64,000 bases of DNA from Ignavibacteriota bacterium (GCA_963776275.1 CAVZMI010000023.1:192001-256000), one strand, 5' to 3'; numbered from the stretch's first letter, positions 10,466-44,871 are shown. A program made the numbers and translations. The notes: generated by a model not told the origin, from the sequence alone.

Positions 10466-10474
10466 ATGGCCAAG

Positions 10475-11077: not shown

Positions 11078-11215
11078 CTCCAGGAATGAGTGTTATGTGG
11101 TGAGTATTAGAAAAACTAATAAATATAACGATAAATGGCAACTGAGATAATCATCATGAGAATTCCACAGTCCGGATTATGGGTTTTTAAATGTGAGGTA
11201 TATCGTTAATATTTA

Positions 11216-11248
11216 AAAAAGCCCCGACGGATTTCGACGAGGCTTTGT
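11216..11248 (-). terminator. Probable terminator after the GH20 gene
   Basis: AAAGCCCCG...CGAGGCTTT hairpin with a T tract on the minus strand. Confidence 0.45.
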
Positions 11249-11274
11249 AAAAAGGCTGCATTCTTACGGCGTTA

Positions 11275-12835: not shown

Positions 12836-12845
12836 TATTTTTCGA

Positions 12846-28527: not shown

Positions 28528-28658
28528 AAATAACGATTGCACAAACCACGCCTTTGAGCGAGCCGCTATCAAAAGAGTCATTCAATGCGGCGAGCGAAGT
28601 GGAACGAGCACTATAATCCATTTCAAAAGAGCGAGTGTCGTGGTTTGTGCTATTATGC
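28528..28658 (-). repeat. Cassette recombination site (attC-like)
   Basis: AAATAAC-GATT-GCACAAACCACG ... CGTGGTTTGTGC-T-ATTATGC. Confidence 0.8.
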
Positions 28659-28692
28659 GTTCGTGGCCGTCCGTGTCTAATTAGTTGTAGAT

Positions 28693-29085
28693 TCATGGAT
28701 TAGAGCTCAACTTGGCCGTGATGTTCGCCTCAAGAAACATCTTCGCATAGGTGTCATTGTAAAAAGTGATCCGTACGTTGTACGAACCGATGGGACGAAT
28801 CTTTACAGGCACACCGACTCGGGCATGGCTGCTGTTTTTGGACGGCCACACGATATGTCGATAGTACTGGGAGACGATTATCGGCAATAAGAATGTCGTT
28901 GCGAGCATCCAGAATCCGATAAATAACAGTGTGCTGAATTCAGCGGTCTTTGCCGAGTTTCGAAATACCATAATTATTAGTACCAACACAAGAATAACAG
29001 CAGCCATCGCAATAGCTGCCTGAAGAAATCCCGTCTTGCTGTCATGTGCTCTACAAGTCGAACATAGTGGAGCTTTAGTCGTCAC
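28693..29085 (-). CDS. Hypothetical two-TM protein (cassette; 5' end possibly damaged)
   Basis: CxxC followed by two TM helices, located between sites. Confidence 0.5.
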   Translation of the reverse strand: MTTKAPLCSTCRAHDSKTGFLQAAIAMAAVILVLVLIIMVFRNSAKTAEFSTLLFIGFWMLATTFLLPIIVSQYYRHIVWPSKNSSHARVGVPVKIRPIGSYNVRITFYNDTYAKMFLEANITAKLSSNP

Positions 29086-29224
29086 CGAGGTGCCCGGACC
29101 TAACAGTTTTCATGATTGTTTAGTCCTTTCGGTTGTGTCTGGCTGCGGATTACGGCAGTCGCGATGAATCAGGCCGTATATCAGTGCTTTGGTTTATTGT
29201 GTCTGTGGCGAAGCCCGGAGCCGC

Positions 29225-29270
29225 CGAACAGGCGGCGGAGCGTCTACGCTCTGTTGTGCGAAGTTCCGAG
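29225..29270 (-). repeat. Remnant right half of a cassette site
   Basis: T-GTTGTGCGAAGTTCCGAG pairs with the cassette start TTCGGAATTTCGCCCAAC at 29921-29938. Confidence 0.6.
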
Positions 29271-29326
29271 TCCTGCCCGAGATAGACTTTTAATTACTGG
29301 GGCTATTACAGATAAATTCATTACAA

Positions 29327-29899
29327 TCATTCTGCTAAAGGAATTTCATTAATAATTGTTTTAAGAATATTTGCTTTGCTTTTCATATCGCTCTGTTTGA
29401 TCTTGTCAGTTTTAATTATTTTTGTCGCTTTTTCTATTGAGTTCGCTAATGCCGTTAAATCATGAAAAATTGCTGCTTTACAGAAAAAGCTTCTCGATCT
29501 TCCATCATCAAATTTACCTATCATTGTTTCAAGTAATTTGATGCGTTTTTTCTGTTGCTCTATAAATTTTTTGATTCCATGTTCTTTTATAAAATACAAA
29601 TTCGGCAAAACTTTTTTACATGATGGGTACGAAGAAGACTCCTTTACTTGCTTATATTCTTCAGCACTTTTAAATTTTGCACAAGGGAAATCTGAACATT
29701 CTGAACAAACTTCAAGATTTTTTTTCTTGACGCAACAGGTTATGAAGGAACATGATGGACGTTTATTGAAGAAATTAGGGCCACCACATCCAGGACATCT
29801 TGAAGTCCCTACAGTATAGTATCTAGGGCATAGACCACAATCAAGGCCACATACACCAATTGTTGGGTATTTTTTCAAAATAGAGCTTGATTTTCCCAT
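29327..29899 (-). CDS. DUF3795-type Cys-rich protein (cassette)
   Basis: CGLDCGLCP, CPGC, CSFITCC, CSECSDFPC, FDDGRSRSFFC. Confidence 0.8.
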   Translation of the reverse strand: MGKSSSILKKYPTIGVCGLDCGLCPRYYTVGTSRCPGCGGPNFFNKRPSCSFITCCVKKKNLEVCSECSDFPCAKFKSAEEYKQVKESSSYPSCKKVLPNLYFIKEHGIKKFIEQQKKRIKLLETMIGKFDDGRSRSFFCKAAIFHDLTALANSIEKATKIIKTDKIKQSDMKSKANILKTIINEIPLAE

Positions 29900-29931
29900 G
29901 ATTATACCTCCTTTAATCCGTTCGGAATTTC

Positions 29932-30184
29932 GCCCAACGTCTAGGCAAACCGCCGTCCTACCCCGATACTATAATAATCAATTCATCTGTGTCGGGGTAG
30001 GGTGGAGCGAGCACTTTACATTTCGCCAACCTTTGTTTTCTCATCGCCTATCCAGTGTGCGCCTGCTCGCCTCGCTCTGCCGAGTATCTCGAGGCGGAGC
30101 GGGTCCGCCATGCTTTATCTTTTGGCGGAAGCGTTTACCCGCCATGTTTCATCTTCTGGCGGGCCGGTTTGCCGTTTGTTAGGC
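29932..30184 (-). repeat. Cassette recombination site, expanded by extra hairpins
   Basis: GCCCAAC-GTCT-AGGCAAACCG ... CGGTTTGCC-GTT-T-GTTAGGC. Confidence 0.75.
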
Positions 30185-30253
30185 GCAGGCAAAGTTCAAT
30201 ATCGATCGCGTTTTGCGGCACAATCGGATGGTGCCTAGTGGTTTGTCGAAACC

Positions 30254-30712
30254 TCAGCTGCCGATGGTAAGCGCGGTTGCTGGTTTCCACCTCCATGCAT
30301 ACCAGACGATTAGCGAAGTACACACAATCTCGATAGTTGCAAAGAATATGTAATAGAGAGCTGGCCTCGTTCCTCCAACAAACGCCGACAACATAACAGC
30401 CGCAGTGTGTAATACACCTATGACAATGTTTGTCCAGCGATTTGCTCTGTACTCCAATACGCGGGAGAGGAGAACCATGGCAATCGCAGTCTCTATGAGT
30501 ATTGCGGATCCCAACAAGAATCCTTGAGTGATATGAAGAGACCCTACATACCCTGTCATTATTTCCTTTAGTGTCGTAGGATCAATTAATGAATGGATAT
30601 CCGCATAAGCATAATTGAACAGTGCAAATATCCATAGTGTTGAGAGTCTTACCTTCATTTCATTCATTTCGTTGGCCTTTCGTGTTGATGAATCTGCAGA
30701 GTGGTTTGTCAT
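30254..30712 (-). CDS. Membrane protein, DUF6326-like (cassette)
   Basis: LSTLWIF.LFNYAYADI...MVLLSRVL..RANRWTNI...YIFFATIE. Confidence 0.75.
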   Translation of the reverse strand: MTNHSADSSTRKANEMNEMKVRLSTLWIFALFNYAYADIHSLIDPTTLKEIMTGYVGSLHITQGFLLGSAILIETAIAMVLLSRVLEYRANRWTNIVIGVLHTAAVMLSAFVGGTRPALYYIFFATIEIVCTSLIVWYAWRWKPATALTIGS

Positions 30713-30830
30713 GTGAATACCTTCAAGGGATTCGGTATAGGGCCACCAGACTATTGCTTATATGGTCTCCACATGACCTAGCCGCAATAGATGTGCCGCA
30801 AAACGCCTTAAGGAATGAATCTTTGCTTGC

Positions 30831-30933
30831 GCATAACGTCCGCAACAAAAATGCCGTCCCGTTTGCCGCTATGATCGACCAATTCCGTTTGCGGCAAACG
30901 GGATGGTTCATTTTACATTTTTGTTGCTGATAT
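30831..30933 (-). repeat. Cassette recombination site split by IS110 (continues at 32567)
   Basis: GCATAAC-GTCC-GCAACAAAAATG ... CATTTTTGTTGC-T-G|ATAT. The remainder ATATGCGGCG follows the IS. Confidence 0.8.
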
Positions 30934-32570
30934 TTTCTAAAAGGTGCCCCTAAGAGTCAAGAGAAATGAGTATTATATAAGCGCAAACAAACACAACACT
31001 CATTCACTTGAGCCAAAGGCTCATCAGCCTACGGCTGAGACTCAAAGGAGGCCATATGTATTACACCGGAGTTGATCTTCATCGCCGTCTCATCGTTCTG
31101 TGCACAGTTGATGAGAGTGGAACAATAGTAGCGCGAGCTCGTATGCGAACAGAACCTGAAAAGATTATTGGCTATTTCTCTCAATGGGCCGCTCCGCAAA
31201 AGGCTGTTGTTGAATGTACAGGGAGTTGGTATTGGTTCTGTGATCTACTCCGCACAAACGGAATTAAAATTCTACTGGCTCACGCAAAATACCTCAAAGC
31301 TATATCATATGCAAAAGTGAAAACCGATGCAGTCGATGCGCAAACGTTGGCACAGTTATTACGCATGGGGTATATTCCCGAAGCTCACCAGCTTTCACCC
31401 GAATATCGTTCTATGCGTGATCTTCTCAGACAACGAATGGTGATGGAACATAAACGGACGAACATGATACAACGCATCGCAAGCATCCTGGCTCAGTTCA
31501 ACATCACCAGCTATCCCGTTGCCCCGTATCAATCTGGATTTGCTGATTTTCTTAACGAATGCCCCATACCGGCAGAATATCGAATGACACTATTGATGTA
31601 CCACCAGCAATGTCTCCAGGCAACCGAACACAGAAAACAGTTAGAAAAATACTTTAAAACGAAACTACGCCCCACACCGGTTGTTCAGCTCCTGATGTCC
31701 ATCCCCGGCATCGGAGATATCACCGGTTCAATCATTGCAATGGAAACAGGGGATATCAATCGCTTTGCTGATGCCAAGCATTATTGCTCGTACTGTCGAC
31801 TCGTACCCGGAGCAAAAGACTCAGGTGGTAAACATAGCCATCGTTCGGGCTCAAAAGATGGCAACCAGTATCTCAAGTATGCCTTCACCGAAGCTGCCAT
31901 CTCCGCCTGAGGCGGATGCGCCTCTGGCGCAAAAGCGATGATGTATTATCCCGAGATCAAGCACTTCGCGACTCAACTGGAACGACGATCTACAAAAAGA
32001 ATCGCACGAACGGTTGTTGCCAAAGAACTGGCGAAGATCACATATCACGTTCTACATCGAAAACAAGAATTTATAACATTTAAGGGCATAGAGATCGACA
32101 AATTACGTGACTGGCCTTCCCGACCCTGTCGGGAGAAGCCCGTGCGCATAACAGGAGAAGAGGTATATTCTCCTCACGCTTGATTGGGATCCGGGAGTGT
32201 CGCCGATGAAATATCCGGGATGTGTTGTTGATCCGTGTTGAAGCCAAAGCCCGTTAAACCTGTCCTGAGCTTGCCGAAGGAGTGTTTGGGACGCCGGTCC
32301 TTGATCGTGTCTGATCCCTTACCCAGGGATATTTGCTCGGCGCTATGTCAATACTCAGACCTCTGTTGTCAATGAACAATATCAATCGTTGTTCTCACAA
32401 CGATATAGGAATACTTTTTTCTCTTGTGAAGTTCCGACGTACTTTGTCGGAACGACATCCCGCCGTTCTCGTCTATCCTGAGCGAGTCCCGCCTTATGCG
32501 GGACGAGTCGAAGGATGGCGGGGACTTTGCTTGCCCCGCGTTCTTTGCGGGGCCTTTTATAAAGTAATAT
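30930..32570 (+). mobile_element. IS110-family element (IS1111-like)
   Basis: ATAT at both junctions, subterminal imperfect IRs (TTTCTAAAAGG / CCTTTTATAAA), and a non-coding region of about 380 bp downstream of the transposase. Confidence 0.82.
31056..32183 (+). pseudogene. IS110-family DEDD transposase interrupted by a 30-bp in-frame insertion carrying TGA
   Basis: GVDLH, VVEC, KTDAVDA, SIPGIG, SGGK, GNQYLK. AAGGAGG RBS. ORFs 31008-31910 and 31938-32183 are in the same frame. Confidence 0.88.
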
Positions 32571-32674
32571 GCGGCGTGCCCTGACCAGTATTCTCAAATG
32601 AGCGAGTGCAGACCCAGCCCACGGGCGGTGCAGACATGAGGTCGAAGAAAGCTGGTCGCTCGAGTAATCAAAGA

Positions 32675-33322
32675 TCACGGTTCCAGTTCAAAGCGCTCGA
32701 TGCAGACGCTGTCTCCTTTCATGAGATTCTTCGGATTTGTCACCTTGATCTTTGGGTTGAAGGCCTTGGCTATCGCATCTGAGGGAGCACACTCAATGGC
32801 GTATCCAATGTCCGCAGCGTTCATCTCTCGATACAGCTTGGCGATGAGGCATTCGGTGTACTTTGCCTCGTAAGCCCGGTCGGACTTCTCAACCACTTCG
32901 TATGTGACGGCCTTGTCATAAGGTGGCGTAGCCAAATAGCCCTGGATGAGATCACCAAGCGCTTTCGGATCTCTCGAAGTGTAGCTTTTGGCCATAGAGG
33001 AGATAGCTTCGGCCATGTTGTCATCCGAAGCCTTTTTTAGGAGTTCAAGGAATTTCTTGCTGCCGAGTTTCTTTTGGAGATTCTGGAACAGCGGAACACA
33101 GTATCCATAGGTAAAGCGAAACACCTCCTCGGTGGTCATGCCCGAGTTATCCGAGTATTTCGGTTTTTGGAGCGATGCTTGCTGACCGGCAAGAGCCAAT
33201 GTAGCGCCAAACATACTGTGACAACCGAGGCAGAGGAGCGCGCCAGCCGGGAAGTCTCTTGACAAGAACTTTCTCCGGCTCGATTGGAGAGACTGATTCT
33301 TGGTTGACATGATAACCTCCAA
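32675..33322 (-). CDS. L-2-amino-thiazoline-4-carboxylate hydrolase-like protein with Tat signal (cassette)
   Basis: SRRKFL twin-arginine motif and TEC..AK.YREM.AADIGY...C..D...LMKGD..C. Confidence 0.75.
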   Translation of the reverse strand: MEVIMSTKNQSLQSSRRKFLSRDFPAGALLCLGCHSMFGATLALAGQQASLQKPKYSDNSGMTTEEVFRFTYGYCVPLFQNLQKKLGSKKFLELLKKASDDNMAEAISSMAKSYTSRDPKALGDLIQGYLATPPYDKAVTYEVVEKSDRAYEAKYTECLIAKLYREMNAADIGYAIECAPSDAIAKAFNPKIKVTNPKNLMKGDSVCIERFELEP

Positions 33323-33418
33323 AGTTGTGATGAAGTTGATGATGTCTCCGAGGTGTCACCTCACCGCCCGTGCGATAGGTGACGAGCTTTTTCAAAATCT
33401 ATGATGGTGGGGCATGCC

Positions 33419-33565
33419 GCATAATGTCCGCAGTAGCAACGCAGTGTCGCCGCGAACTCTGAACAATTCATTTCTCTGTGAGCGGCGGCATTGAGTGATC
33501 CCGACGACCTGTACGCCATTTCTTTAGCGGGAGTCGGGAGAGCGTCGTTGCTGCCGTTATTAGCC
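33419..33565 (-). repeat. Cassette recombination site with variant cores
   Basis: GCATAAT-GTCC-GCAGTAGCAACG ... CGTTGCTGCCGT-T-ATTAGCC. Confidence 0.72.
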
Positions 33566-33598
33566 GCCGGCTTTCGTCCCTCCACCGTTGGCTGACAA

Positions 33599-34270
33599 TT
33601 ACTTTTTAAAACTCGTTTTCAGCGCTCCGGTCGGACAGCTCTCAACGCAACGCTGACAGAGGATGCAATCGCCTTTGCCAATGCGTGTGCCCATTCTCAC
33701 ACGCTCAGCCACGGGAATGTCCATCGGACAGACTTCCGTGCACGCCTCGCATTCGTTGCACGCCTCGGCCTGGGCGGAGACATGGAGAAGCGCCGGGCGG
33801 CTCGTCCAACGCAGAATGAATCCGGTGGGACAAAGGTATTTGCAGAACGCGCGTTGGTCGTGCAGAGCCAGTGCCAGCGCAATAGCTGCCGCATAGTAAA
33901 CGGCAACGCCGGCAGCGACGGGCCAGATGCTGTTGCCGCGCATGTGTCCGTGGGCTCCGCCGGGCTGGGAGTCTAACACCAGCGCGAACAGAACTGCGGC
34001 CGCAAAACTGACGGCCACACCGACAAGCGGCGTCCAAACCCAAACACCCTTGCGCCGGCCCGAGCCCTTGCCGACGGGAAGACGCTCGAGCACCATCGCA
34101 CGCCAACACCCCCATCCACACAGAATTCGGCCAAAGATGAGCGGCCCGATGACGGTGGTCACCATCGTGTGACCGATAGCCGGGCCTACTGTTCCCAGGA
34201 TCAGGAGCTCGAAGAAGCCATCTATGTCGAGGTTGACGGCATCGACCAATGAGAACATGAGAATTCCCAA
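33599..34270 (-). CDS. 4Fe-4S binding membrane protein (NapH/MauN-like); 5' part frameshifted or fused
   Basis: FGRILCGWGC, RAFCKYLCP and two CxxCxxCxxxCP motifs. High GC. Confidence 0.78.
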   Translation of the reverse strand: MGILMFSLVDAVNLDIDGFFELLILGTVGPAIGHTMVTTVIGPLIFGRILCGWGCWRAMVLERLPVGKGSGRRKGVWVWTPLVGVAVSFAAAVLFALVLDSQPGGAHGHMRGNSIWPVAAGVAVYYAAAIALALALHDQRAFCKYLCPTGFILRWTSRPALLHVSAQAEACNECEACTEVCPMDIPVAERVRMGTRIGKGDCILCQRCVESCPTGALKTSFKK

Positions 34271-35062
34271 TCCACCGGTGGCCAGGACGAGCCACCGCCA
34301 CCACTGTTTGCGGTCAGCGCGGGCAAAGGCGTAGCCGGCGAGAAATGGACCTTGGGAGAGCCCCGAACCGAAGAGAGCAAATTGCGAAACCCAATGTGTT
34401 TCCCCGGAACAGTACTACTGCAGCCAACGGCCAAAAGACGAGAAGGGAGATAGCGCTGACGACGAGCAACGCACGACTGACTCTACGGGGGGTCGTGCAC
34501 TCCCCGGTCACGGGATCCTCCGAGGATACGCATACATTCGGATTCTTCTTCACCTGTAGAAATTTTATAAACATATAAATATACTTTATTACAATTGTTA
34601 AAACAACGATGTCCAAAATAATAATCGAACCAATCAAAAAAGATCACACCAATGATGCCAGATAATAACTCTCCTACAAAAACAAAAGCAATCAAAAACG
34701 ATTTATGAATTTCAACGATCCAACTGAGTACTGTGTGCCCACCTTGGATTGCTGTTTTCATTATTAAAAAGATTACGAATAAGAATTCGATAAATAGTAC
34801 TATTAAAAACGATTCTTTCAGTTTTGCACATATCTTAATATGGTTGCGCCCTAACTATTGTTTATATGGTTTCCGCGTAAGACCACTGTATGTTCCATCG
34901 CAGCATTACACGCCACAGTCAGAATTTCCAAAAGCGCTAAGCCCAAACAAGTTATCGCCGCTCAGCTCACTGACAAGAGTGTTATGCGGTTTCGGCATAA
35001 CATGGCACGCCTTTCGTTCCTTCGTGCCGCAAAACGCCTTAAGAAAATGAATCTTTGCTTGC

Positions 35063-35226
35063 ACATAACGTCCGGCATGCCCACGCAGTACCGCCACGCC
35101 ATTTTGCAAATGAACAATTTCATATTTGCAGCGTGGCGGTATTGAGGGAGCACAATTTATTTTGCTTAATGAGTTTTTATTATCGTCTGACTAGTTGTGC
35201 GACCGTCGTGGGCACGCCTGTTATGC
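35063..35226 (-). repeat. Cassette recombination site
   Basis: ACATAAC-GTCC-GGCATGCCCACG ... CGTGGGCACGCC-T-GTTATGC. Confidence 0.85.
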
Positions 35227-35293
35227 GACGCGCAGCCGAACCACCAATTCGATCTCTTCGTGTAGATAGAAAAGTTGTAATTTTCTGTTGTCG

Positions 35294-35950
35294 TCACTGA
35301 GCCAGAGTATCGACCGTGACTGAAACAACTTTGCTCTTTTGGAACAGCTTAGTTTCTCGTATGGAACGACGAATTCTCTCGTCAAACCAAGTATTTTTCT
35401 CAGATATCTGAACTAGCTTGCCTTTCACGAACTGATAGCCGCATTCTGTACCACAACACGCACCAGATTGTTCCATTGTAGTCAACGTCCGTGTGGAACT
35501 ATCGGGTGTTAGTTCACTAAGTTTACTTAGCTCGTCATGGTAGAAGAATTTTTTTGTTTTCGGACTGAAAAGCCAAACATACGACCAACTCCCACCACTT
35601 CCATAATCGTATTCCAGCATCAGATCTAGATATCCATCGAAATTGAGATCCTTGGCTATGAATGCCCCTTCCCCAAAAGGATGGTATGTTTTGAAGTTTT
35701 TGAGGATTTGAAAAATTCCCGGTTTGTCTGACCGCTTGATTTCGATTCGTGATACCGAATGCACTGCCCCCGTCTCACTTGTATCTTCGTTAACGATGAA
35801 ATGCAATGTATATGGGGGTAGTGTAGAATGTATGGTAATGGTGTATTTGTAGTCGATTTCGTTGGGTTGACCACTTGTCAACCTATAGAAGCCTACCAAC
35901 AGGAACGCAATTCCAAGGATCATGAGTAATTTCAGTTTAGGAGTATTCAT
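35294..35950 (-). CDS. Secreted hypothetical protein, XAC2610-like (cassette)
   Basis: Signal peptide, DLNFDGYLDL, VWLFSP..KKF, SGACC. Confidence 0.65.
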   Translation of the reverse strand: MNTPKLKLLMILGIAFLLVGFYRLTSGQPNEIDYKYTITIHSTLPPYTLHFIVNEDTSETGAVHSVSRIEIKRSDKPGIFQILKNFKTYHPFGEGAFIAKDLNFDGYLDLMLEYDYGSGGSWSYVWLFSPKTKKFFYHDELSKLSELTPDSSTRTLTTMEQSGACCGTECGYQFVKGKLVQISEKNTWFDERIRRSIRETKLFQKSKVVSVTVDTLAQ

Positions 35951-36021
35951 TTCAATGAAAACCTTGAAGTATAGTTATACTATACATTGAAACCACCAAA
36001 CCTTTGGTGAGGCTGCGTGGC

Positions 36022-36139
36022 GCATAACGTCCGGCACAAAAATGACGTTGGGGCGCGAACTAATAATGACTAATTATTCTGTGAGCGACCCAATGTTTAT
36101 TCGGATTTCAAACTGCCAACATTTTTGTGCCTGTTAAGT
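36022..36139 (-). repeat. Cassette recombination site (of ORF-less cassette copy B)
   Basis: GCATAAC-GTCC-GGCACAAAAATG ... CATTTTTGTGCC-T-GTTAAGT. Confidence 0.87.
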
Positions 36140-36225
36140 GCACGTGACCGCGGCACTTCACTATACTTCAGGACTTCAACTCGCGCCACTTCAAAGACTG
36201 CTAACGCCGCGGGCATTGCACTTAA
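36028..36225 (-). mobile_element. 198-bp ORF-less cassette, copy B
   Basis: Identical by eye to 38401-38598. Confidence 0.85.
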
Positions 36226-36328
36226 CGTGTGCGGGCACTACGCAGTCCCGCTTGCCACTAAGAACAATTCAATTTTCTGTGGCAAGCGGGATTGAGTGTT
36301 CTTCACGTCGTAGTGCCCGCTGTTATGT
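36220..36328 (-). repeat. Cassette recombination site
   Basis: ACTTAAC-GTGT-GCGGGCACTACG ... CGTAGTGCCCGC-T-GTTATGT. Ends 12 bp from the gene stop. Confidence 0.87.
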
Positions 36329-36340
36329 GCAGTTGCCCGT

Positions 36341-37817
36341 TCATCGTAATAAAATAAGTTTCTTTGTCTCAACAAAACCACCAGCTTCGAGTCTATAATA
36401 ATACACACCGCTTACAATACCTAATGGATTCCATTCTGTTGTATAAGTACCGGCACTCAAATCTTGCGACAAAAGCTGTACGACTTCCTGTCCTAATGTG
36501 TTGTAGATTCTTAATGAGACATGTACTTCTTTGGGGAGTGAGAATCGTATCGTTGTGGTCGGGTTAAAGGGATTTGGATAATTTTGCCAAAGGTCGAATG
36601 CAGTCGGAATATCTCCTTCAGGTTTAATACCTTCCACCCCAACATTTCCGTCAACATCCGTCTTAATTAGATATATCTGTAGACTGTCCCCGAAAGACCA
36701 GGTTTCACCAGTTATTATATAGCCACCGTCAGTAGTCTGCTGAACGGAGTGACCATAACCCGACTCATAGGTTTTTGTCCACAATGTATCCCCAGAAGAA
36801 TTGGTTTTAAATAGGTAAACATCATAATCGAGGGCATCGTAGGAACTCTGTCCCGTGATGATGTATCCACCGTCTGTTGTCTGCTGTATGGAGTTACCAT
36901 AAGAGTAACGTCTACCCTCATAGGTCCCCCCATATGTCCTTGTCCAAACGGTGTCCCCATTGTCATTAGTCTTGATTAGATAGACTGCAGTTCCAGAGAA
37001 TAAGTCCATATCCCCAACAACGATGTAGCCGCCATCAGTAGTTTGCTGAACGGACCGACCCCTTGAATGTGATGAGCCCGCCCCCTCGTAGGTCACTTGT
37101 CCAAAGTGTATCCCCGATTGTATTAGTTTTTATAAGGTAAATATAATCTTTGTAGGTAGCAAAATTTCTGATATATCCCTCAACGATGTAGCCCCCATCC
37201 ATGGTCTGCTTGATTTCGTTTCCCTCATCAGTATAATAAGTGAGCGTTCCCCCGTAGGTCCTGGTTCACAGTGTGTCCCCGGAGGAATTGGTTTTTATCA
37301 GGTAAACTTTGTAAGAACCCTTAGCCCCTGCAACGATGTATCCGCCGTCTGTAGTTTGCTGGACGGAACTACCAAATTCGTCGCCCGACCCCCCATAGGT
37401 TTTTGTCCACAGTGTGTCTCCGGAGAAATTGGTTTTAATTAGGTAAACCTGTATGCCACTACCGAAAGAGCCGGTACTTCCCGCAACAATGTAACCACCA
37501 TCCGTAGTTTGCTGAACGGAGTGCCCCCCATCATCACCCGCTCCTCCGTAGGTATTTGTCCAAAGTATATCCCCATTGGCGTTGGTCTTTACGAGGCAGA
37601 CATCGTAATTTCCTGCACCGAAGGAATTGGTCCTGCCCGCTACGATGTAGCCCCCATCAGTAGTCTGCTGGACGGATTGACCGTATTCTCTTCTAGTCCC
37701 CCCGTAAGTCCTTTCCCACCGCTGTTGAGAAACCGCAGGTTCGGCTAAGGTGAGGATCAGCAGGAAGAACAGGAGGGTAGAAAAGGTGAGCAAGTGAAGT
37801 TTGAAACGTAACTTCAT
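36341..37817 (-). CDS. Beta-propeller-type repeat protein with T9SS C-terminal domain (cassette; frameshifts near 37095 and 37265)
   Basis: About 7 repeats of W..TYGG...G.SVQQT.DGGYIVAG...YLIKT, a signal peptide and QNYPNPFNPTTTI. Confidence 0.8.
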
Positions 37818-37949
37818 GGAAACCTCCTTATAATGATACTATTTGATAATGTTTCATAATCCAAGTATAGCATTTCATAGTACACCTCCACTAATTTTGC
37901 ACTCCTTTTCTTCCTATCGTCTGTAGGCAGATCTTGAAAGGGCAATTGC

Positions 37950-38097
37950 ACATAACGTCTGGGCCAACTACGCACCCCGACCGACCAACATTTTGTCAAT
38001 TGACGGGCGGGGGGAACGAACTCTATTTGTCGCGCCGAACTAGGCACCAACGTTGCCTTACCAAATGAAGTGAGTGTCGTAGTTGGCGCTGTTATGC
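37950..38097 (-). repeat. Cassette recombination site
   Basis: ACATAAC-GTCT-GGGCCAACTACG ... CGTAGTTGGCGC-T-GTTATGC. Confidence 0.85.
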
Positions 38098-38340
38098 GCT
38101 GGCGGCCGCCCCGCACCTGCGAATTATGACCTGCCTTGCTTTTTGACGCCTGTATGATCCCTTGCCACGGTGGGTATCGCACAGTCCCGCCCAAAACCTT
38201 TCGTATGACATGGGATGTTCATGCTTGGACCGCCAGTGCGCGTCAATTCCATCCCACCCGTGCCCTTGAAAAACGTGATTGCACTCTGGACAAATCCGAG
38301 GGCCGGTCTTCGGTACCATTTTTTCGCAACATCTGCACAT
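38092..38340 (-). CDS. Small Cys/His-rich protein (cassette)
   Basis: CPEC.HVF...WDGIDAHW...H and a GGAGG RBS. Its TAA stop lies in the site core, as is typical of cassettes. Confidence 0.65.
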   Translation of the reverse strand: MCRCCEKMVPKTGPRICPECNHVFQGHGWDGIDAHWRSKHEHPMSYERFWAGLCDTHRGKGSYRRQKARQVIIRRCGAAASA

Positions 38341-38394
38341 GTTATACTAACCTCCGTCTGTTTTGTCTGGTAATTATTCGGGGCGGCCGCTTGT

Positions 38395-38512
38395 GCATAA
38401 CGTCCGGCACAAAAATGACGTTGGGGCGCGAACTAATAATGACTAATTATTCTGTGAGCGACCCAATGTTTATTCGGATTTCAAACTGCCAACATTTTTG
38501 TGCCTGTTAAGT
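38395..38512 (-). repeat. Cassette recombination site (of ORF-less cassette copy A)
   Basis: Identical to 36022-36139. Confidence 0.87.
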
Positions 38513-38598
38513 GCACGTGACCGCGGCACTTCACTATACTTCAGGACTTCAACTCGCGCCACTTCAAAGACTGCTAACGCCGCGGGCATTGCACTTAA
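38401..38598 (-). mobile_element. 198-bp ORF-less cassette, copy A
   Basis: Identical by eye to 36028-36225. Confidence 0.85.
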
Positions 38599-38726
38599 CG
38601 TGTCGGCAAACACCGCCGTGCCGTTTGGCGTATATTAATGATTCAATTTTCCTCACGCCAAACGGCATGGAACGACCACCATAATCCTTCCCAATAAAGG
38701 GAGTGCCGGTGTTTGCCGTGTTAGGC
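38593..38726 (-). repeat. Cassette recombination site
   Basis: ACTTAAC-GTGT-CGGCAAACACCG ... CGGTGTTTGCCG-T-GTTAGGC. Confidence 0.87.
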
Positions 38727-38754
38727 GAAGTTGTTTTGCATTTGCGGAAAACGC

Positions 38755-39252
38755 TTAATGTTTCACAAGGGACTTACGAATGCGGTTATTGATCCCTTGC
38801 AGTGTATCTGTTTCAATTTGATGTTCCCAATAGCGAAGAACTTTCCATTTACACTTTCTCAGGATTCGAGTTTGTCGGACATCTCGCCTTCTGTTGTCGA
38901 GAATTTTTTCCTTCCACCAGAGCGTATGTGAGTTAGGAACCTTAAAATGAATGGGACAGCCGTGCCAAAAGCATCCATCAAGGAAGAGGCACACTTTATC
39001 CTTTGGAAACACAATATCCGCTTTTATCTTCAGCAGGGGCTCGGGTCTTACATTTGTACGAAATCTTAATCCAGCTTTTTTAAGGAAGATACGTAACCTT
39101 TGTTCCTGTTTGGTCTCGTGTCCTGTATTGCTTTGCATTACACGATGTACAAGGGGAGATGATGCACTAGGCGCACGAGATCGAATTGACTGTCTTGGCC
39201 GAGAGGCCTTTCTTCTATTGGTTGGTTTGGCTGTCCGTACTGACACTGTCAA
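38755..39252 (-). CDS. vsr: Very short patch repair endonuclease
   Basis: MQSN...ETKQE, ADIVF, FLDGCFWHGCP.H, N.RRD, W.VLRYWEH. Confidence 0.9.
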   Translation of the reverse strand: MTVSVRTAKPTNRRKASRPRQSIRSRAPSASSPLVHRVMQSNTGHETKQEQRLRIFLKKAGLRFRTNVRPEPLLKIKADIVFPKDKVCLFLDGCFWHGCPIHFKVPNSHTLWWKEKILDNRRRDVRQTRILRKCKWKVLRYWEHQIETDTLQGINNRIRKSLVKH

Positions 39253-40256
39253 ATTATTTTTGAGTCTGATGATCGTTTGTATTCTGCTTTTTCCTCACCG
39301 ACACTGATGTGAAAGGCATTTTCCGTCATACTAAAGCTAATTGGAGGTAATTCGTCGGGTGTCGCCTCAAGAGCCTGCTGCATCGGGGCTTTGACATATT
39401 TTTCCAAAAAGACGGTCATCACCTCACCAGCGGCTTTTTCGAGGTGCCGCCAAGCTTCATCTCCGACAAATGTAGTGCCACCAGCATCCTTGAATGCAGC
39501 AACCAATTCAGTGAGTTTCGGGTTTGGTGTTGGATCAAGAACGATGAGAACGGGTTTGTATCCACTTTGTTTGCAGTCTGTTGGAAAATCAACTTCTTCC
39601 TGCCAGCGACCTTGTCCCGATGCAGCGATGGTAACTCGAATCTTGATCTCGTATGCTAACTTATCTCGGATGCAATCAACTTGACGCCCTTTCGAGCCAT
39701 CATCGTGTCGTTTGATTGGACTTGCCTTAGCGCTAAAGGAAGCACCTCCGATTGCATTGGCGATTATTGGTTCGAAAAGGTAGCCAGTTTCTTGTCCAGC
39801 TCTATTGTCGATATCGAACAGCCACTTTCTCCATAGGAGGAACCCAGCTAGAGCTTGAGGGCTCATTTGCCCATACTGCAGGAGCGTCCGTGGACCTACT
39901 TGATCCATGGTTGGAACAGCTTGGTATTCAAGTATCCGAGCGTATTTCAGCCTGCTTTTTTGCAGGGTTGCCAAACAAGAGAAGTATGTATCAGCGTCCG
40001 GGATCAGTTTGAAAAGGCGTTCAATAAGCATGTAAAAGTCTAACTTAGTGAGTTCAAGCTTACGGGGATCGGCCTCGTCGAAGAATTCTGGAAAGCTTAT
40101 TTTAACCTCAGGAAACTTCTTAAGGATTTTCAAATCACGAACGATCGTTGCGACGAGGAAGGCACAAGCTTCATCTGAAAGGCCTGTGCCTAATTCACCG
40201 CCGCCAGCCGCCCTTGCCTTTTCAACGAGCGACTTCTGAGATTGTGTTATTGCCAT
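39249..40256 (-). CDS. Putative type II restriction endonuclease
   Basis: Overlaps both the C5-MTase and vsr. PD-(D/E)xK-like QVD...AYEIK preceded by GYLFE. Confidence 0.72.
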   Translation of the reverse strand: MAITQSQKSLVEKARAAGGGELGTGLSDEACAFLVATIVRDLKILKKFPEVKISFPEFFDEADPRKLELTKLDFYMLIERLFKLIPDADTYFSCLATLQKSRLKYARILEYQAVPTMDQVGPRTLLQYGQMSPQALAGFLLWRKWLFDIDNRAGQETGYLFEPIIANAIGGASFSAKASPIKRHDDGSKGRQVDCIRDKLAYEIKIRVTIAASGQGRWQEEVDFPTDCKQSGYKPVLIVLDPTPNPKLTELVAAFKDAGGTTFVGDEAWRHLEKAAGEVMTVFLEKYVKAPMQQALEATPDELPPISFSMTENAFHISVGEEKAEYKRSSDSKII

Positions 40257-41491
40257 AAAGCTATTTGCTCCAGTCCGATTTCTATGCGAGTAGTGGGAAA
40301 CCTACGTCTAATGCGGTATGTAATATCTTCAAGTACAGGACTCTTTCCGCTTGAGACTGTAGGAACAAAAGACAGTAATGCTCCATTCTTAAAAGACTGA
40401 ATGTTTGAAACTTTTTCAAGATCAAGTTGTAGATTGAGAGCAATTACTTCAGCAAGACGTGGTGGAACAGCATTCCCAATTTGTAGGATACATTCAGTGG
40501 TATTTCCAATAAAGATGAAGTCATCAGGGAAACTTTGAATGCGAGCACACTCGCGAAGTGTTAAGGTTCGATCATCAATAGGATGGATGAATTCTGATGT
40601 GGCACCACTCGTAATTGCCTTCGACGGTTGATCGTCTCTCAACCGTCTCAGTCCTGCGGGAGCTCCACCTCTTCGTTCTGTTGGGGTTCCGTCCATTACT
40701 CTTCTAAACGCTCTGCGTCGATAACTCTCATGCCATAACTCAGTAGGTAGGTCTTTCATCGTCTGACCTGGTTTCAGAAGGCGGACACGTTCAATGTCCT
40801 GCTCGGATAGTGGACGATAATAATGGCCATCTGGAAAACCGGGTGGCAACAGAGTAGGACGTGGTAAACCCCTAAGTGCATCGGCTAGCGTCGGACACGG
40901 AGGGAGATGCTTGAAGGCCTTTGATGCCCCAGGAGCTCCGTAAGCCGAATAAGTCGGTTCTGGGAACCGAGGAGACCATCCCAAGCCGCCAATTGCTATT
41001 ACTCGCTTGCGATGCTGAGGAACTCCGAAGTTTGCAGCGTTTATTTTTCGAAGATGGATCTGATAGCCTACGTCAACCAATGGTTCAAGTAGATCGAACA
41101 CTCTATTCCCATTATCTGCAGTTAGAAAACCCTCGACGTTCTCGAAGACAAATGCTTTTGGTTTGTGTTGGACAACTAGTTCTGAAAAAACTCTGACAAG
41201 TGTGTTTCTATGGTCATCTGAACGACGCATTCCCGCTGAGGAGAATCCCTGACAAGGTGGCCCTCCTATAATCACATCCGTGGATGGAATAATAGTTGAT
41301 TCGGTTATATTATCTGTCAGGATATGGTCTTCAAAGTTCCTTCTGTATGTCCTCGTTGCTGATTCATTGGAATCTATAGCAACAACGCAAGTAAATCCCG
41401 CCTTTTGAAAACCAAGCGAGAGCCCACCAGCACCGCAGAACAAGTCTGCGTAGGTCATATTGTTATTATGTCCTTGGTCTATTTCCAACAT
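40247..41491 (-). CDS. DNA (cytosine-5)-methyltransferase
   Basis: DLFCGAGG (I), GGPPCQGFS (IV), FENV (VI), PQHRKR (VIII), RECARIQSFPD (IX), QIGNAVPP (X). Confidence 0.95.
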   Translation of the reverse strand: MLEIDQGHNNNMTYADLFCGAGGLSLGFQKAGFTCVVAIDSNESATRTYRRNFEDHILTDNITESTIIPSTDVIIGGPPCQGFSSAGMRRSDDHRNTLVRVFSELVVQHKPKAFVFENVEGFLTADNGNRVFDLLEPLVDVGYQIHLRKINAANFGVPQHRKRVIAIGGLGWSPRFPEPTYSAYGAPGASKAFKHLPPCPTLADALRGLPRPTLLPPGFPDGHYYRPLSEQDIERVRLLKPGQTMKDLPTELWHESYRRRAFRRVMDGTPTERRGGAPAGLRRLRDDQPSKAITSGATSEFIHPIDDRTLTLRECARIQSFPDDFIFIGNTTECILQIGNAVPPRLAEVIALNLQLDLEKVSNIQSFKNGALLSFVPTVSSGKSPVLEDITYRIRRRFPTTRIEIGLEQIALWQ

Positions 41492-41568
41492 ATTGGTACT
41501 TCTTTACCCGTATTCGTTGCATGAAACATAATAAAAACTTATCAAAAGTCATAATGCAAAACAATTTC

Positions 41569-41701
41569 GCCTAACGTCTCGCCCAACAACGCAGCGCTTT
41601 TGCGAACTATAAATGGACCAATTCATTTGTGAAGCAAAAGCGTTGAGCGACAACAACTATACTCTATCAAAGATGGAGCGTCGTTGTTGGGCGTGTTATG
41701 C
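41569..41701 (-). repeat. Cassette recombination site
   Basis: GCCTAAC-GTCT-CGCCCAACAACG ... CGTTGTTGGGCG-T-GTTATGC. Confidence 0.87.
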
Positions 41702-41964
41702 GAAGCGCCCAAAGTCGCCTATTGGATACCACACGAAGCTAACGGTGTTACAAATAACGGGTGCCCCAACACAAGAATGCCGATCAAGAGTACAACATCA
41801 ATAATTTTATTACGTCCAGTTGATTTGCTGGATATACACATTTTACAAATTAATTTAGCTCCTTAGAGGTGTTAAAAATTTATTTTGTTATTATAACCCT
41901 TATTATTTTGGACAAATTATATTTGCATCTCTGCTTTGTTTATGTCATTCTTAAAAACTAAACT

Positions 41965-42390
41965 TTATGGACCTACATAACCACAACTGGAACAAATCTG
42001 TACCCCAGTAAGTCCAGCTTTTGGACCGTAGCCAGATGCACCGCAGCGCGGGCATTTTGGCCTAGAGGCAGTTACAATAGCCCAACAAGCTGGGCACACG
42101 GCCAAAAATGGTTTTCCATCTAATGTGGTATACGGTTCTGTCAATGCTGGGTGACCGATTTCGCCTTCAACTTGTCCACGATTAGAAGCGGGTACGAATG
42201 TGAATCGGCCAGTAGGTTTTCGACCACAAAAATTGCACGTATCATATTGAGGTTTAGAATTATTGTTCTTCGGATAATCTATCATATCTTCATGTTTCTT
42301 CTCTGATGCAAAGGTACCACGACCGCATCTAGGACATTTAATTAATCCATTTGGTACCTTCTCTCCACAGATGGCACATATTTTTTCCAT
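41965..42390 (-). CDS. Zinc-ribbon-rich hypothetical protein (cassette)
   Basis: Six CxxC pairs. The probable start is MEKIC at 42390. Confidence 0.6.
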   Translation of the reverse strand: MEKICAICGEKVPNGLIKCPRCGRGTFASEKKHEDMIDYPKNNNSKPQYDTCNFCGRKPTGRFTFVPASNRGQVEGEIGHPALTEPYTTLDGKPFLAVCPACWAIVTASRPKCPRCGASGYGPKAGLTGVQICSSCGYVGP

Positions 42391-42611
42391 ATGATTTATC
42401 GCCTTCTTAGTTTTTTTAGTATATACTTTGTATATATAAATATTGATTATATGGTTTCCATATAATACGCCTTCGCCATTGCCCTTCGGCATAACACGTC
42501 TCTGCTGTTTGCTCGTCAGGTTCCTTGTTTTTCCGGTTCTTGTATTAATAATAGTATAAATGGGTAACGATTCTATTGATATAGTCAGTCCTTTCTATCT
42601 TTGGGCGTTTC

Positions 42612-42728
42612 GCATAACGTACTGCGGCAACACGCCGTGCCGCCATTCCATGAAACATGAAATGACGGCGGCATGGAGCGAGCACCTTGAATATGAAACG
42701 GCGAGCGTCGTGTTGCCGCATGTTAGTT
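42612..42728 (-). repeat. Cassette recombination site (first cassette)
   Basis: GCATAAC-GTAC-TGCGGCAACACG ... CGTGTTGCCGCA-T-GTTAGTT. Confidence 0.87.
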
Positions 42729-42994
42729 GCAGGCGCCGCTTCCACTGCCCTTTTCCCAAAGGGATCAATCCGGACAGTTGGCGCGCGTTCTCCATGGTGG
42801 CAGTGCCTTGCCAGTTCTCTTGCCAATCGTGGCATACTGCAGACGCTAAGGACACGTTGAACTTTCCGAACAATTGACTGCTTCCTCGTGACTGCCGCAC
42901 GCTTGGGATGACGACCCATGCGCAATATCATAGTCTCATCGTTCATTCCACCGCGGTTCCAAATATTTCGGCCGGTCATTTTCGTGAGATTTTT

Positions 42995-43369
42995 TCAGTC
43001 GGTGCATAGATTTATTGTCGGGAGCATAAATTGTCCTACAAAGAATTTATTGTCAATCGTTACAATCGCATTGTAGTATGAGCCGATCCCAAGGAATCCG
43101 CTATTGTAGGTCACCATCAGTTCGACGCTGTGGCCGCTATAAGTTCCAGTTGCATTGATCCCTTTCCAATCAAAAACAGGGACCGATTTAGTTATTACGG
43201 TTGAATCATTGACTATTACCTTGATAGCTGGATATAGTCCCGATTTCTCAACTCTGACCTGCCAAGTCTCACTAGTTGCACACGGCGATTGATATGTTGC
43301 GAACTTCGATGAGTAGCAGCCCGCGATTAGAAAACCGAATAGTAAAAAGAACGGTAACTTTCTCTTCAT
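42995..43369 (-). CDS. Putative lipoprotein (first cassette)
   Basis: MKRKLPFFLLFGFLIAGC lipobox. Confidence 0.7.
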   Translation of the reverse strand: MKRKLPFFLLFGFLIAGCYSSKFATYQSPCATSETWQVRVEKSGLYPAIKVIVNDSTVITKSVPVFDWKGINATGTYSGHSVELMVTYNSGFLGIGSYYNAIVTIDNKFFVGQFMLPTINLCTD

Positions 43370-43616
43370 ATTCTGCCTTTTTCTGTCTGATTTACTCCGA
43401 GACCGGAACTGCGGCTAAAGATGACCTTGACTGACACCTTTGGAACAGCTTGGTCATCGGCGCCATGGTAAGCAACGGTCGCCACGGAGATACCAACTCG
43501 TCTCTTCATTGATTGCCCTTGATAAAAATCCTCCACGAATTTATCAGGTCTCATGTTAAGTGTTCCAGCATTGCCGCGCGCCAACAAGTCGCAACCACTC
43601 TTTTAATAACTTTCTG

Positions 43617-43668
43617 GCGGCGCTTGCAACTAACATTTGCAACAACGCTATATAGCGTTGTTCTCTTT
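43617..43668 (-). other. Putative primary insertion site (attI-equivalent)
   Basis: GCGGCGCTTGCAACTAA|C-ATTT-GC-AACAACGCTATATAGCGTTGTT. A lone core plus a palindrome overlapping the recombinase stop. Confidence 0.65.
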
Positions 43669-44583: not shown

Positions 44584-44871
44584 CTTCTTTTCTCCAGAAT
44601 TGTTCCTCTACATTAAATAGAACGATTCTGGGTTACAGGTGGAGTTATCGTGCCATCTCTTCTCTAAATTAAAAAGTGGATGCGTCTATGAGTTTGTTCC
44701 AGTATAAGAGCCAAATATCACACCCTATCAGACAGGTTCGAAGGCGGCCCAATAAAAAATGTCGGGAGTATCTATGTCAAACGGAGTATAATAAACTGCG
44801 AATTAAAAAGCAATTATGTTGGAAATGCCTGAGTATTCTTGAAAACATAGAATCTACCGGCTGCCGATCGT

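Follow-up and report, generated by a model that had tools for sequence, protein, structure and literature searches.

An Ignavibacteriota cassette array with bulge-free sites and an adjacent insertion-less integrase points to a simpler kind of integron

Integrons are held to be defined by bases that are flipped out of the folded recombination site and by an extra domain of the integrase. In canonical integrons the choice of the strand and the block on the second strand exchange are brought about by contacts of these extrahelical bases with the I2 insertion of the enzyme. Chromosomal attC sites commonly have branched terminal structures. The extrahelical bases of a canonical attC are G16 and T23/24 with a spacing of 6 bp (PMC5027507). 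The integrase gene may be oriented like the cassettes, as in the 'inverted integrase' integrons of Treponema, Chlorobium and others (PMC4889954, and the available text of PMC3607928). Here we analyse a stretch of 64,000 nucleotides from an Ignavibacteriota bacterium (GCA_963776275.1, CAVZMI010000023.1:192001-256000; the window), which shows three linked departures from the canonical integron, i.e. stems without bulges, an IntI-clade recombinase without the insertion and an integrase gene co-oriented with the cassettes. We read the locus as a non-canonical kind of sedentary chromosomal integron, in which a cassette array is served by the adjacent insertion-less integrase and the bottom-strand fold of the sites is the substrate, and we put the probability of this reading at roughly 60%.

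The array spans positions 28528 to 42728 with 12 sites, all of them on the plus strand. Every ORF of the array is on the minus strand, and for the cassette genes the plus strand is the bottom strand. Read along the minus strand with falling coordinates, the order is integrase, candidate attI and at least 12 cassettes, each closed by an attC-like site. The layout proposed by the first-pass annotation, TAAC, four nucleotides, a 12-nt arm, its complementary arm, T and GTTA, was found exactly in 10 window sites, some of them with a degenerate GTTA, and all six arm sequences quoted there are present. The departures are the two variants S2 and S4. A covariance model (R1) trained on 6 sites of the window together with 10 of relatives recovered 12 of 12 window sites on the plus strand with E-values of 1.6e-29 to 3e-09; S2, S3, S4 and S5 were outside its training set.

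The first site, S12 (42612-42728; R1 score 85.1 bits), is the closest to the integrase at about 920 nt from the stop codon. It is followed by S11 (41569-41701; 121.8 bits) and S10 (38593-38726; 123.4 bits), which like the sites down to S5 have a spacer of four nucleotides against one (4x1), by S9 (38395-38512; 63 bits), by S8 with a single arm mismatch (37950-38097; 67.3 bits), by S7 (36220-36328; 99 bits), by S6 (36022-36139; 63 bits), which is identical to S9 and part of an ORF-less cassette duplicated there, and by S5 with a single A/C mismatch in the arm (35063-35226; 85.8 bits). Intact TAAC and GTTA boxes are present in 8 of the 12 sites, and the remaining four, S1 to S4, each have one degenerate or interrupted box. 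S4 (33419-33565; 74.1 bits) has a 5' box TAAT and a 2-nt bulge in the 5' arm. S3 (30831-30935; 62.1 bits) is cut past the G of its GTTA by an IS110-family element on the plus strand (30930-32251, right end approximate; PF01548 and PF02371), the junction being located against an intact sister site on contig C32. S2 (29932-30192) is a long variant of about 257 nt with a 5' box CAAC (45.8 bits for 29932-30184), and S1 (28528-28658; 116.9 bits) ends with ATTA instead of GTTA. S1 to S4, the four sites most distant from the integrase, are thus degenerate, so that part of the array may be inert.

The first cassette carries an ORF of 124 amino acids (42995-43369, minus strand) that matches no Pfam family. 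The cassette between S10 and S11 (38755-41491, minus strand) has three genes for a Vsr-like endonuclease, an ApaLI-like restriction enzyme and a C5 cytosine methylase. Cassettes recur in other contexts. A 964-nt cassette is present in identical form in two arrays of a related genome (G002) with different neighbours, and the identity runs from TAAC to TAACGTG. In addition, S12 is found on contig C22 with another left neighbour, and the sequences of C22 and the window diverge just 5' of TAAC. These comparisons support the claim that the elements are recombination sites of a cassette array, and judging from them the cassettes are mobile units with a boundary in the core box, within TAACGTG.

In a scan of the whole 3.7-Mb genome for TAAC...GTTA that required 10 nt or more per arm, 18 sites had 4x1 and 2 sites 5x2 spacers, while other spacing classes had at most 2 members each. 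The same picture emerged from 50 distinct sites of this genome and of fetched loci of eight relatives: 4x1 with a minority of 5x2, the 3' spacer being T in 50/50 and the 5' spacer opening with GT in 48/50. The first-pass annotation had described an asymmetric 4x1 loop. Its spacing held, yet the fold is refined to a G.T pair that lengthens the TAAC/GTTA box, seen in 16 of 16 aligned sites, and a 3-nt bulge on the AAC arm. The 12-bp stem that follows is unbroken with 405 of 420 cells paired over 35 distinct arms, which is partly built in because the site detector tolerates a single mismatch at most, requires a minimal arm length of 9-10 nt and so selects on arm pairing. The first break of the arm alignment was something other than a single-base bulge of the 3' arm in 44/50 sites. 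Of 35 evaluable sites, 28 have a second helix that begins right behind the arm, and in 18 of these G.T is the third pair of that helix, as had been proposed. Likewise, the motifs named for the interior were recovered in the window sites with a strong strand bias: CAATT 8 times on the plus vs once on the minus strand, GA(A/G)CGA 8 times vs once and GAG(C/T)GT 6 times vs none, where each plus-strand count exceeded the maximum of 500 mononucleotide shuffles. The latter two motifs pair with each other, which the annotation missed, and make tandem G.A pairs at the base of one branch of the junction.

The adjacent gene (43648-44583, minus strand) encodes an IntI-clade tyrosine recombinase of 311 amino acids. 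It points with its 3' end towards the array and is co-oriented with the cassette genes. The enzyme lacks the IntI-specific I2 insertion of about 40 residues near patch III, a feature overlooked in the first-pass annotation. The IntI profile TIGR02249 scored 237.7 bits, i.e. under the curated cut-off of 265, and matched only with its positions 2-181 and 235-315, leaving 182-234 unmatched. The closest solved fold is VchIntIA (2a3v, E 3e-17), and the alignment to it has a gap of 40 residues. In the family alignment the insertion region comprises 86 residues in the window integrase vs 125 in 10 canonical IntI, and the insertion-less integrases of the order have 83-86 residues there. A structure model of the window integrase has short strands and no helix between helices 176-189 and 209-222. 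The catalytic residues are preserved: R140, K165, H232, R235, H258 and Y267 align to R146, K171, H277, R280, H303 and Y312 of IntI1, and the full hexad was found in 25/25 insertion-less relatives. In a tree the window integrase groups with canonical IntI and apart from the genome's own Xer proteins (support 95/100), and canonical IntI is nested within the insertion-less group. A role in Xer chromosome-dimer resolution was considered and rejected, as the protein occurs in 17/41 genomes of the order and thus is not near-universal, and as separate XerC/D-like genes are present on contigs C6 and C11, from which the tree splits the integrase.

The sites were compared with canonical ones of distant and of close origin. 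On the arm opposite AAC the window sites have no extrahelical bases, while in the aadA2 control the 3' arm was interrupted by a bulged G and a bulged T. Both bulges also occur, with a distance of 6 bp on the 3' arm, in 16 of 18 candidate sites that neighbour a canonical IntI of the same order. The spacer is 4x1 in the window compared to 5-6 nt on each arm of a canonical attC; however, next to canonical IntI of the same order the spacers are 8x5, 5x2 or 4x2, with the AAC arm longer by 2-3 nt. The excess is common to both site types, and thus the asymmetry alone is not the novelty. From the contrast to attC drawn by the first-pass annotation the missing extrahelical base of the L-box stands, whereas spacer asymmetry as a distinguishing mark does not.

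The two site types are also separated by covariance models. R2, a model of canonical-type sites used as a stand-in for the IntegronFinder attC model, detects the class 1 attC of aadA2 (49.3 bits) and gcuF, yet neither the window nor five related arrays gave it a match at E ≤ 1, which agrees with the claimed misfit to canonical attC. Conversely, R1 had no match at canonical-IntI loci of the same order; the models do not cross-detect. Among 41 genomes of the order, at least three R1 sites were present in 16/17 genomes with an insertion-less integrase vs 7/24 without, and at least three R2 sites in 10/13 genomes with canonical IntI vs 3/28 without; the three-site cut-off was picked after the counts were seen, and the relatedness of genomes of one order makes these counts overstate independence. 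Either type of integrase is thus found together with sites of its own type.

Does the insertion-less integrase act on the sites, or are they a divergent attC family of a canonical IntI that acts in trans or has since been lost, so that the window holds a relic cluster with an unrelated or accessory neighbour? Canonical IntI is common in the order (60/151 genomes), one genome (G002) carries both integrase types, and the 2-3 nt spacer excess is common to both site types. Furthermore, G008, G019 and G026 have 7, 8 and 11 window-type sites with canonical IntI only, and G001 of the same genus has 24 such sites and neither integrase. On the other hand, the genome of the window itself, which is 96% complete, yielded no canonical IntI, and arrays of window-type sites adjoin the 3' end of an insertion-less integrase in the window, on C22 and at L013, L014, L015, L019 and L020. 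In most related loci a GC-n-TAAC box follows the stop codon of the integrase gene at a distance of no more than 140 nt. A preferred orientation was also seen in 80 loci of many phyla: downstream of the integrase and on the opposite strand, bulge-free sites with the longer AAC-arm spacer numbered 46 and the reverse 2, while upstream there were 6 vs 9, and of the 36 loci whose downstream sequence extends over 3 kb or more, only 7 had at least two sites. Integrases without the insertion thus occur together with bulge-free downstream sites in other phyla, too. Finally, according to the available text of PMC2095811, IntI1 recombined a VCR with complemented extrahelical bases at about 3.8e-5 compared to about 1e-1 for the wild type, i.e. 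about 3000-fold worse. Taken together we consider service by a canonical IntI unlikely.

The covariation check favoured the branched fold. In 16 sequences 92.4% of the cells were paired vs 67.9% in shuffles, none of 500 shuffles reached the observed value, and a control with partner columns slid gave at most 50.4%. Compensatory changes were seen in 27 of 35 pairs. Three helices covary, which supports a three-way junction and so the branched substrate that had been predicted. The folding comparison of both strands showed the plus strand to be stabler in 11 of the 12 window sites and in 46 of the 50 distinct sites, by 2.7 kcal/mol in the mean. The predicted folds contain 127 G.T pairs on the plus (bottom) vs 43 on the minus (top) strand, and the two conserved ones (16/16 and 12/16 sites) would be C.A mismatches on the opposite strand. 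The bottom strand is favoured for folding, and stability and G.T counts alike back the proposal that the plus-strand fold is under selection.

These data bear on a Xer-like action on double-stranded DNA, where the TAAC/GTTA boxes or a palindrome at the stop codon would be core sites and the hairpin would serve another purpose. The protein has a Xer-like length and misses the insertion tied to single-strand recombination. In the region 43625-43665, which by guess we assign as attI, a TAAC box (43631-43634) is next to a 22-nt palindrome (43641-43662), which overlaps with the stop codon of the integrase gene and has a 6-nt centre in the classical layout of a core site; similar palindromes are present in relatives, and IntI retains double-strand activity on attI as stated in the available text of PMC4792948. 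Yet three covarying helices and two G.T pairs restricted to one strand are expected of a folded single strand and not of duplex recognition, the greater stability of the bottom strand points the same way, and the two boxes of a site are separated by 100-260 nt and have no inverted partner close by. Thus duplex recognition appears improbable, even a little more so than service by a canonical IntI. That the hairpins are no recombination sites but act at the transcript level, e.g. as terminators or stabilisers, or belong to a dispersed family of palindromic repeats, would fit their position downstream of ORFs and the roughly 6 of 36 genome copies that are solitary, but it is highly improbable because the strand-specific G.T pairs form on the strand that does not encode the cassette genes, so that an mRNA would have C.A mismatches instead, because whole cassettes have changed context with their boundaries falling in the TAAC box, because 30 of the 36 copies are clustered and sites associate with the integrase, and because no Rfam family matches the sites.

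For the favoured reading, a non-canonical integron with its own insertion-less integrase, we propose the following mechanism. The single-stranded plus strand would fold into the box with its G.T pair, the 3-nt bulge, the 12-bp stem and the three-way junction. Two integrase monomers would bind, one at the box and one at the proximal stem, and the box-bound monomer would cut within TAA|C, so that one strand is exchanged with attI or another site. The resulting junction would be resolved by replication as in canonical integrons. Both partners of the canonical contact, the extrahelical bases and the I2 insertion, are missing in the window system; the G.T pair, the 3-nt bulge and the junction may instead bring about strand choice and the block on the second exchange. 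The analysis demonstrates how the sites are built, their covariation and strand bias, where the cassettes end, the features of the integrase and its co-occurrence with the sites, whereas we infer the binding of the integrase, the exact nucleotide of cleavage, the exchange of a single strand and the role of the bulge.

The findings point to a simpler, widespread kind of integron. As a tentative extension, to which we would give slightly less than even odds, 'minimal integrons', of which the window would show one member, may form a large class that crosses phyla and combines a co-oriented insertion-less integrase with attC sites devoid of extrahelical bases, strand choice being made by G.T pair, bulge and junction; canonical integrons would then have derived from within this class by gaining the insertion and the extrahelical bases. 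If true, minimal integrons would be invisible to integron finders based on the integrase, and they could explain some orphan attC clusters and why integrons seem scarce in Bacteroidota and Bacillota.

The system shares much with canonical integrons such as class 1 cassettes and the Vibrio VCR: a cassette array in which every site goes with one ORF set, inverse core boxes (AAC end, GTT start) with the crossover inside the AAC box, an imperfect palindrome with favoured bottom-strand folding, and an IntI-clade recombinase with the full catalytic hexad. It differs by the missing I2 insertion and the co-orientation of integrase and cassettes. The canonical-IntI integrons of the same order (e.g. loci L125, L127, L128 and L130) have the host lineage and long branched sites of 130-180 nt in common with it, but their integrases possess the insertion (125 residues) and are divergent from the array. 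XerCD on the attP of phage CTX is an insertion-less Xer recombinase that acts on a folded ssDNA hairpin with an unpaired central region, exchanges one strand and leaves completion to replication; it is, however, a housekeeping Xer acting on a phage genome, without a dedicated integrase or a cassette array. The 'inverted integrase' integrons have the integrase oriented as in the window, yet the Treponema attC has typical R and L boxes with a protruding G, unlike the window sites (PMC3607928, available text). Insertion-less relatives are already known as proteins from the 'integron-like' tyrosine recombinase subgroup of Smyshlyaev et al. 2021, where the accessible part of the paper relates them neither to cassette arrays nor to sites that lack extrahelical bases. 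Engineered attC without extrahelical bases (VCR-GTT, delta-EHB) recombined poorly or lost strand selectivity with IntI1 (PMC2095811, available text; PMC5027507). They share the bulge-free stems but are laboratory mutants, whereas the window sites are natural, conserved and accompanied by a different integrase.

Between 28528 and 42728 small sets of ORFs, all on the minus strand, are set apart by twelve imperfect palindromes of 99 to 257 nt, here called S1 to S12 with S12 nearest to the integrase gene and S1 farthest from it. The first-pass annotation had described a shared plus-strand form for these sites, and this was confirmed. Ten of the twelve have exactly a TAAC-ending box, 4 nt that usually begin with GT, a 12-nt arm and its complement on either side of a variable interior, a T and GTTA or a degenerate GTTA, and a covariance model built from sites of this type (R1) found 12 of 12. 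The two variants are S2 with CAAC and S4 with TAAT and a 2-nt bulge. Damaged boxes occurred only in S1 to S4, the four sites most distant from the integrase. A mechanical scan of the whole 3.7-Mb genome yielded 18 sites with spacers of 4 nt on the 5' and 1 nt on the 3' side (4x1), two of 5x2 and at most two of any other class. Rfam gave zero matches in the window at gathering thresholds, and the GC profile showed nothing decisive.

The box TAAC/GTTA is lengthened by a G.T pair in all 16 aligned sites. On the AAC arm this pair is followed by a 3-nt bulge and then by the 12-bp stem. Folding with DNA parameters and covariation agreed on the fold as a whole. The end of the arm is sharp, position 13 being paired in just two of 35 distinct arms. 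The second helix starts without a gap on its 5' side, and the G.T wobble proposed for its third pair was borne out in 12 of 16 aligned sites and 18 of 28 evaluable folds. A third helix occupies the 3' side, and its base is built from the motifs GA(A/G)CGA and GAG(C/T)GT. The R of the former covaries with the Y of the latter (G-C nine times, A-T seven times, never broken), and this pair adjoins a tandem G.A/A.G.

Covariation was assessed in an alignment (A3) of 16 sites, six from the window and ten from relatives, which omits S5, S6/S9 and L019a from a fetched locus because they misaligned, as well as S2, S3 and S4. MAFFT alignments (A1, A2) had misplaced S3, S4, S5, S6 and L019a. That the arms differ from site to site but stay complementary held up: 92.4% of cells were paired in the proposed structure compared to 67.9% after shuffling (none of 500 shuffles as high), with the detector itself partly enforcing high arm pairing. 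Compensatory change was seen at 27 of 35 pairs, and controls with slid partners reached at most 50.4% pairing. The variety of pair types, the sharp arm end and the spacing class are not enforced by the detector, and RNAalifold independently recovered the same helices. Gapped arm aligners with strict thresholds gave too few sites; constrained folding and a softer local aligner were used instead.

Comparison of folding energies of both strands agreed with the earlier view that the fold is favored on the plus strand. This strand was the more stable one in 11 of 12 window sites and in 46 of 50 distinct sites, drawn from the window's own genome and from loci of eight relatives, with a mean difference of 2.7 kcal/mol; the corresponding Wilcoxon p is overstated because the sites are related. 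The predicted folds contained 127 G.T pairs on the plus strand versus 43 on the minus strand. Because an mRNA would carry the minus-strand sequence, the fold under selection is that of the DNA bottom strand. We also considered the gene-sense strand as the recombined one, which would put the extra bases opposite AAC like extrahelical bases. This was rejected, since the cassette unit is an ORF with its downstream site, G.T pairs and stability favor the plus strand and canonical-type sites of the same order show the same polarity.

The window integrase (311 aa, 43648-44583, minus strand) has its 3' end facing the array. The integron integrase model was its top scorer, yet its score stayed under the cut-off, and the match is split in two, leaving profile positions 182-234 uncovered. 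About 40 residues are missing compared to VchIntIA (2a3v). In the family alignment the region of the IntI-specific insertion (I2) comprised 86 residues in the window integrase, 125 in IntI1 and nine canonical IntI of the order, and 90 to 92 in the XerC/D-like proteins encoded by the same genome as the window integrase. The set of six catalytic residues is complete. In the AlphaFold model (mean pLDDT 81) the insertion region had short strands only, and the nearest solved fold was 2a3v, followed by XerA. In a tree of 38 proteins the insertion-less and canonical proteins were jointly split from the genome's Xer with a support of 95/100. Canonical IntI formed a single clade (100/100) nested within the insertion-less group, a placement that we take only as a lead, with one IntI1 as the canonical sample from outside the order.

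Canonical integrons of the same order served as a control. Of the 151 genomes of the order, 60 had a canonical IntI that scored above the cut-off; none was found in the window's own genome. In these arrays the integrase gene is divergent from the array. The sites beside canonical IntI carried two single-base bulges 6 bp apart on the 3' arm in 16 of 18 candidates, matching both the extrahelical bases described in PMC5027507 and the class 1 aadA2 site as folded here. Spacers were 8x5, 5x2 and 4x2. Thus the canonical-type sites, too, have 2 to 3 nt more on the AAC arm, and the spacer excess is a trait of the lineage rather than of the window type. The claim of a fold unlike canonical attC therefore stood with respect to the lack of extrahelical bases, while the asymmetry dropped out as a distinguishing feature. 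A poor fit to a canonical-type attC model was seen with a covariance model built from the canonical-type sites of the order (R2, a stand-in for the standard attC model), which at E≤1 found none in the window and none in five related arrays, but did find the class 1 attC of aadA2 (E 2e-10) and gcuF (E 4e-4). R1 in turn matched neither the three plasmid integron loci scanned nor six canonical arrays of the order at E≤1. Very large canonical-type arrays were seen in two genomes of the order, G024 and G025, with 73 and 71 R2 matches.

Sites and integrases were then counted in 41 related genomes; these are kin, and the cut-off of three sites was picked after the counts were seen. At least three R1 sites were present in 16 of 17 genomes with an insertion-less integrase versus 7 of 24 without. 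For R2 sites the corresponding figures were 10 of 13 with canonical IntI and 3 of 28 without. As exceptions, G008, G019 and G026 have window-type sites with canonical IntI only. G001, of the same genus and 99% complete, has 24 window-type and 11 canonical-type sites, and neither integrase type was found in it.

The insertion-less protein family is large, as 7545 of the 8000 candidates that were scored reached E≤1e-20; its members are named XerD, tyrosine recombinase or 'recombinase/integron integrase' in the sources. Among the best 80 genome loci, drawn from many phyla, bulge-free TAAC...GTTA sites downstream of the integrase on the opposite strand had their longer spacer on the AAC arm in 46 cases and the reverse arrangement in two, compared to six and nine, respectively, upstream. 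At least two sites were found in seven of the 36 loci having at least 3 kb downstream, their records being labeled Bacillota, Tissierellales, Spirochaetota, Flavobacterium, Paenibacillus and Treponemataceae. In nine loci (the seven multi-site loci, L039 and L102), 27 of 31 sites folded more stably on the strand opposite the integrase. Insertion-less relatives also occurred in L064 (Thermoplasmata archaeon), L054 (Candidatus Buchananbacteria) and loci of other candidate phyla; in the archaeal locus a GCGTATAAC box lies beyond the stop codon. The genome record of L084, Flavobacterium sp. MAHUQ-57, has no MAG label. This suggests a cultured strain, and bench testing of the idea may thereby be possible.

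Traces of cassette movement were found in G002, a genome of the order, where two arrays share a 964-nt unit at 100% identity but flank it with different neighbors. The identity starts at TAAC and stops at the TAACGTG of the next site. Furthermore, contig C22 of the window's own genome carries integrase, candidate attI and first cassette once more in diverged form (9445-12954 versus window 42603-44654, 94-99% identical), broken by about 313 nt within the integrase gene and about 1146 nt within the first cassette. S12 is common to both, divergence sets in just 5' of TAAC and other cassettes follow S12 on C22. This copy may represent either another integron or a variant strain within the assembly. 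No public sequencing runs were listed for 35000-44600. The boundaries of the G002 unit and the divergence point on C22 place the plus-strand crossover within TAAC or immediately behind it, which fits the canonical AA|C. A crossover after the 4-nt spacer was suggested by an ORF-less cassette (a site plus about 90 nt) with two identical copies in the array, 36022-36228 and 38395-38601 (S6/S9), both followed by GTGT. It was rejected, because in G002 one and the same cassette precedes GTGT, GTGT and GTGC, while the rare spacer GTTC of that cassette moves with the arm on its right. A TAAC box at 43631-43634 together with a 22-nt palindrome over the integrase stop codon is the candidate attI. A similar GC-n-TAAC box lies at most 140 nt from the stop codon in most related loci, and we regard the attI assignment as a lead.

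Same-type sites outside the window number 24: nine on contig C32 (259-12856), three each on C22, C12, C34 and C7, two on C20 and one each on C18 and C8. Except on C22 no integrase was seen beside them, and they resemble orphan attC clusters or single sites. Within the array, an IS110-family element (Pfam DEDD_Tnp_IS110, Transposase_20; 30930-32251) interrupts the GTTA box of S3 exactly behind its G, a position read off an intact sister site on C32; the transposase frame of the element looks split (31008-31910, 31938-32183). IS1111-type elements target attC sites, and this insertion recalls them. The single cassette at 38755-41491 is a restriction-modification module with three genes, encoding a Vsr-like mismatch endonuclease, an ApaLI-like restriction enzyme and a C5 cytosine methylase. 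At 36341-37817 a protein that combines beta-propeller-like repeats with a type IX secretion sorting tail is apparently split (36341-37096, 37035-37202, 37266-37817) and may be frameshifted.

The insertion and the extrahelical bases are reportedly treated as defining and necessary by Messier and Roy 2001 and MacDonald 2006. They are likewise treated as defining and necessary for integron recombination in PMC5027507, PMC4792948, PMC2095811 and bioRxiv 10.1101/2022.02.06.479319, and according to the last the field rests its definition of IntI on the insertion. Insertion-less members of an 'integron-like' recombinase subgroup have already been noted (PMC8138268), and PMC9024848 reports complete integrons from Ignavibacteriae. 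Within the full-text literature, which excludes subscription journals, we found no paper that connects cassette arrays with insertion-less integrases, nor one that describes natural attC lacking extrahelical bases; the supplementary lists of integrons and attC clusters in PMC4889954 and PMC9024848 may include such arrays. The larger point is that, in parallel, the integrase insertion has been lost or was absent ancestrally. A natural system without either insertion or extrahelical bases, in which cassettes nevertheless move and a strand-specific fold is under strong selection, would make the two a co-evolved pair rather than a requirement and provide a living model for the transition from an Xer-like enzyme to an integron integrase. 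Because tools relying on the insertion miss these platforms, the search for integrons would widen.

By analogy to integrons, two monomers would bind the folded bottom strand, cleave in TAA|C and exchange it with attI or another site, and replication would resolve the junction. The strand-specific features that remain are the invariant G.T pair, the 3-nt bulge by the cleavage site and a junction with the conserved tandem G.A, and these may take over strand choice and the block of a second cleavage. In canonical integrons, according to PMC4792948 and PMC2095811, both are set by extrahelical bases that are read by IntI-specific elements, whereas in the window system the extrahelical bases and the IntI-specific elements are missing together.
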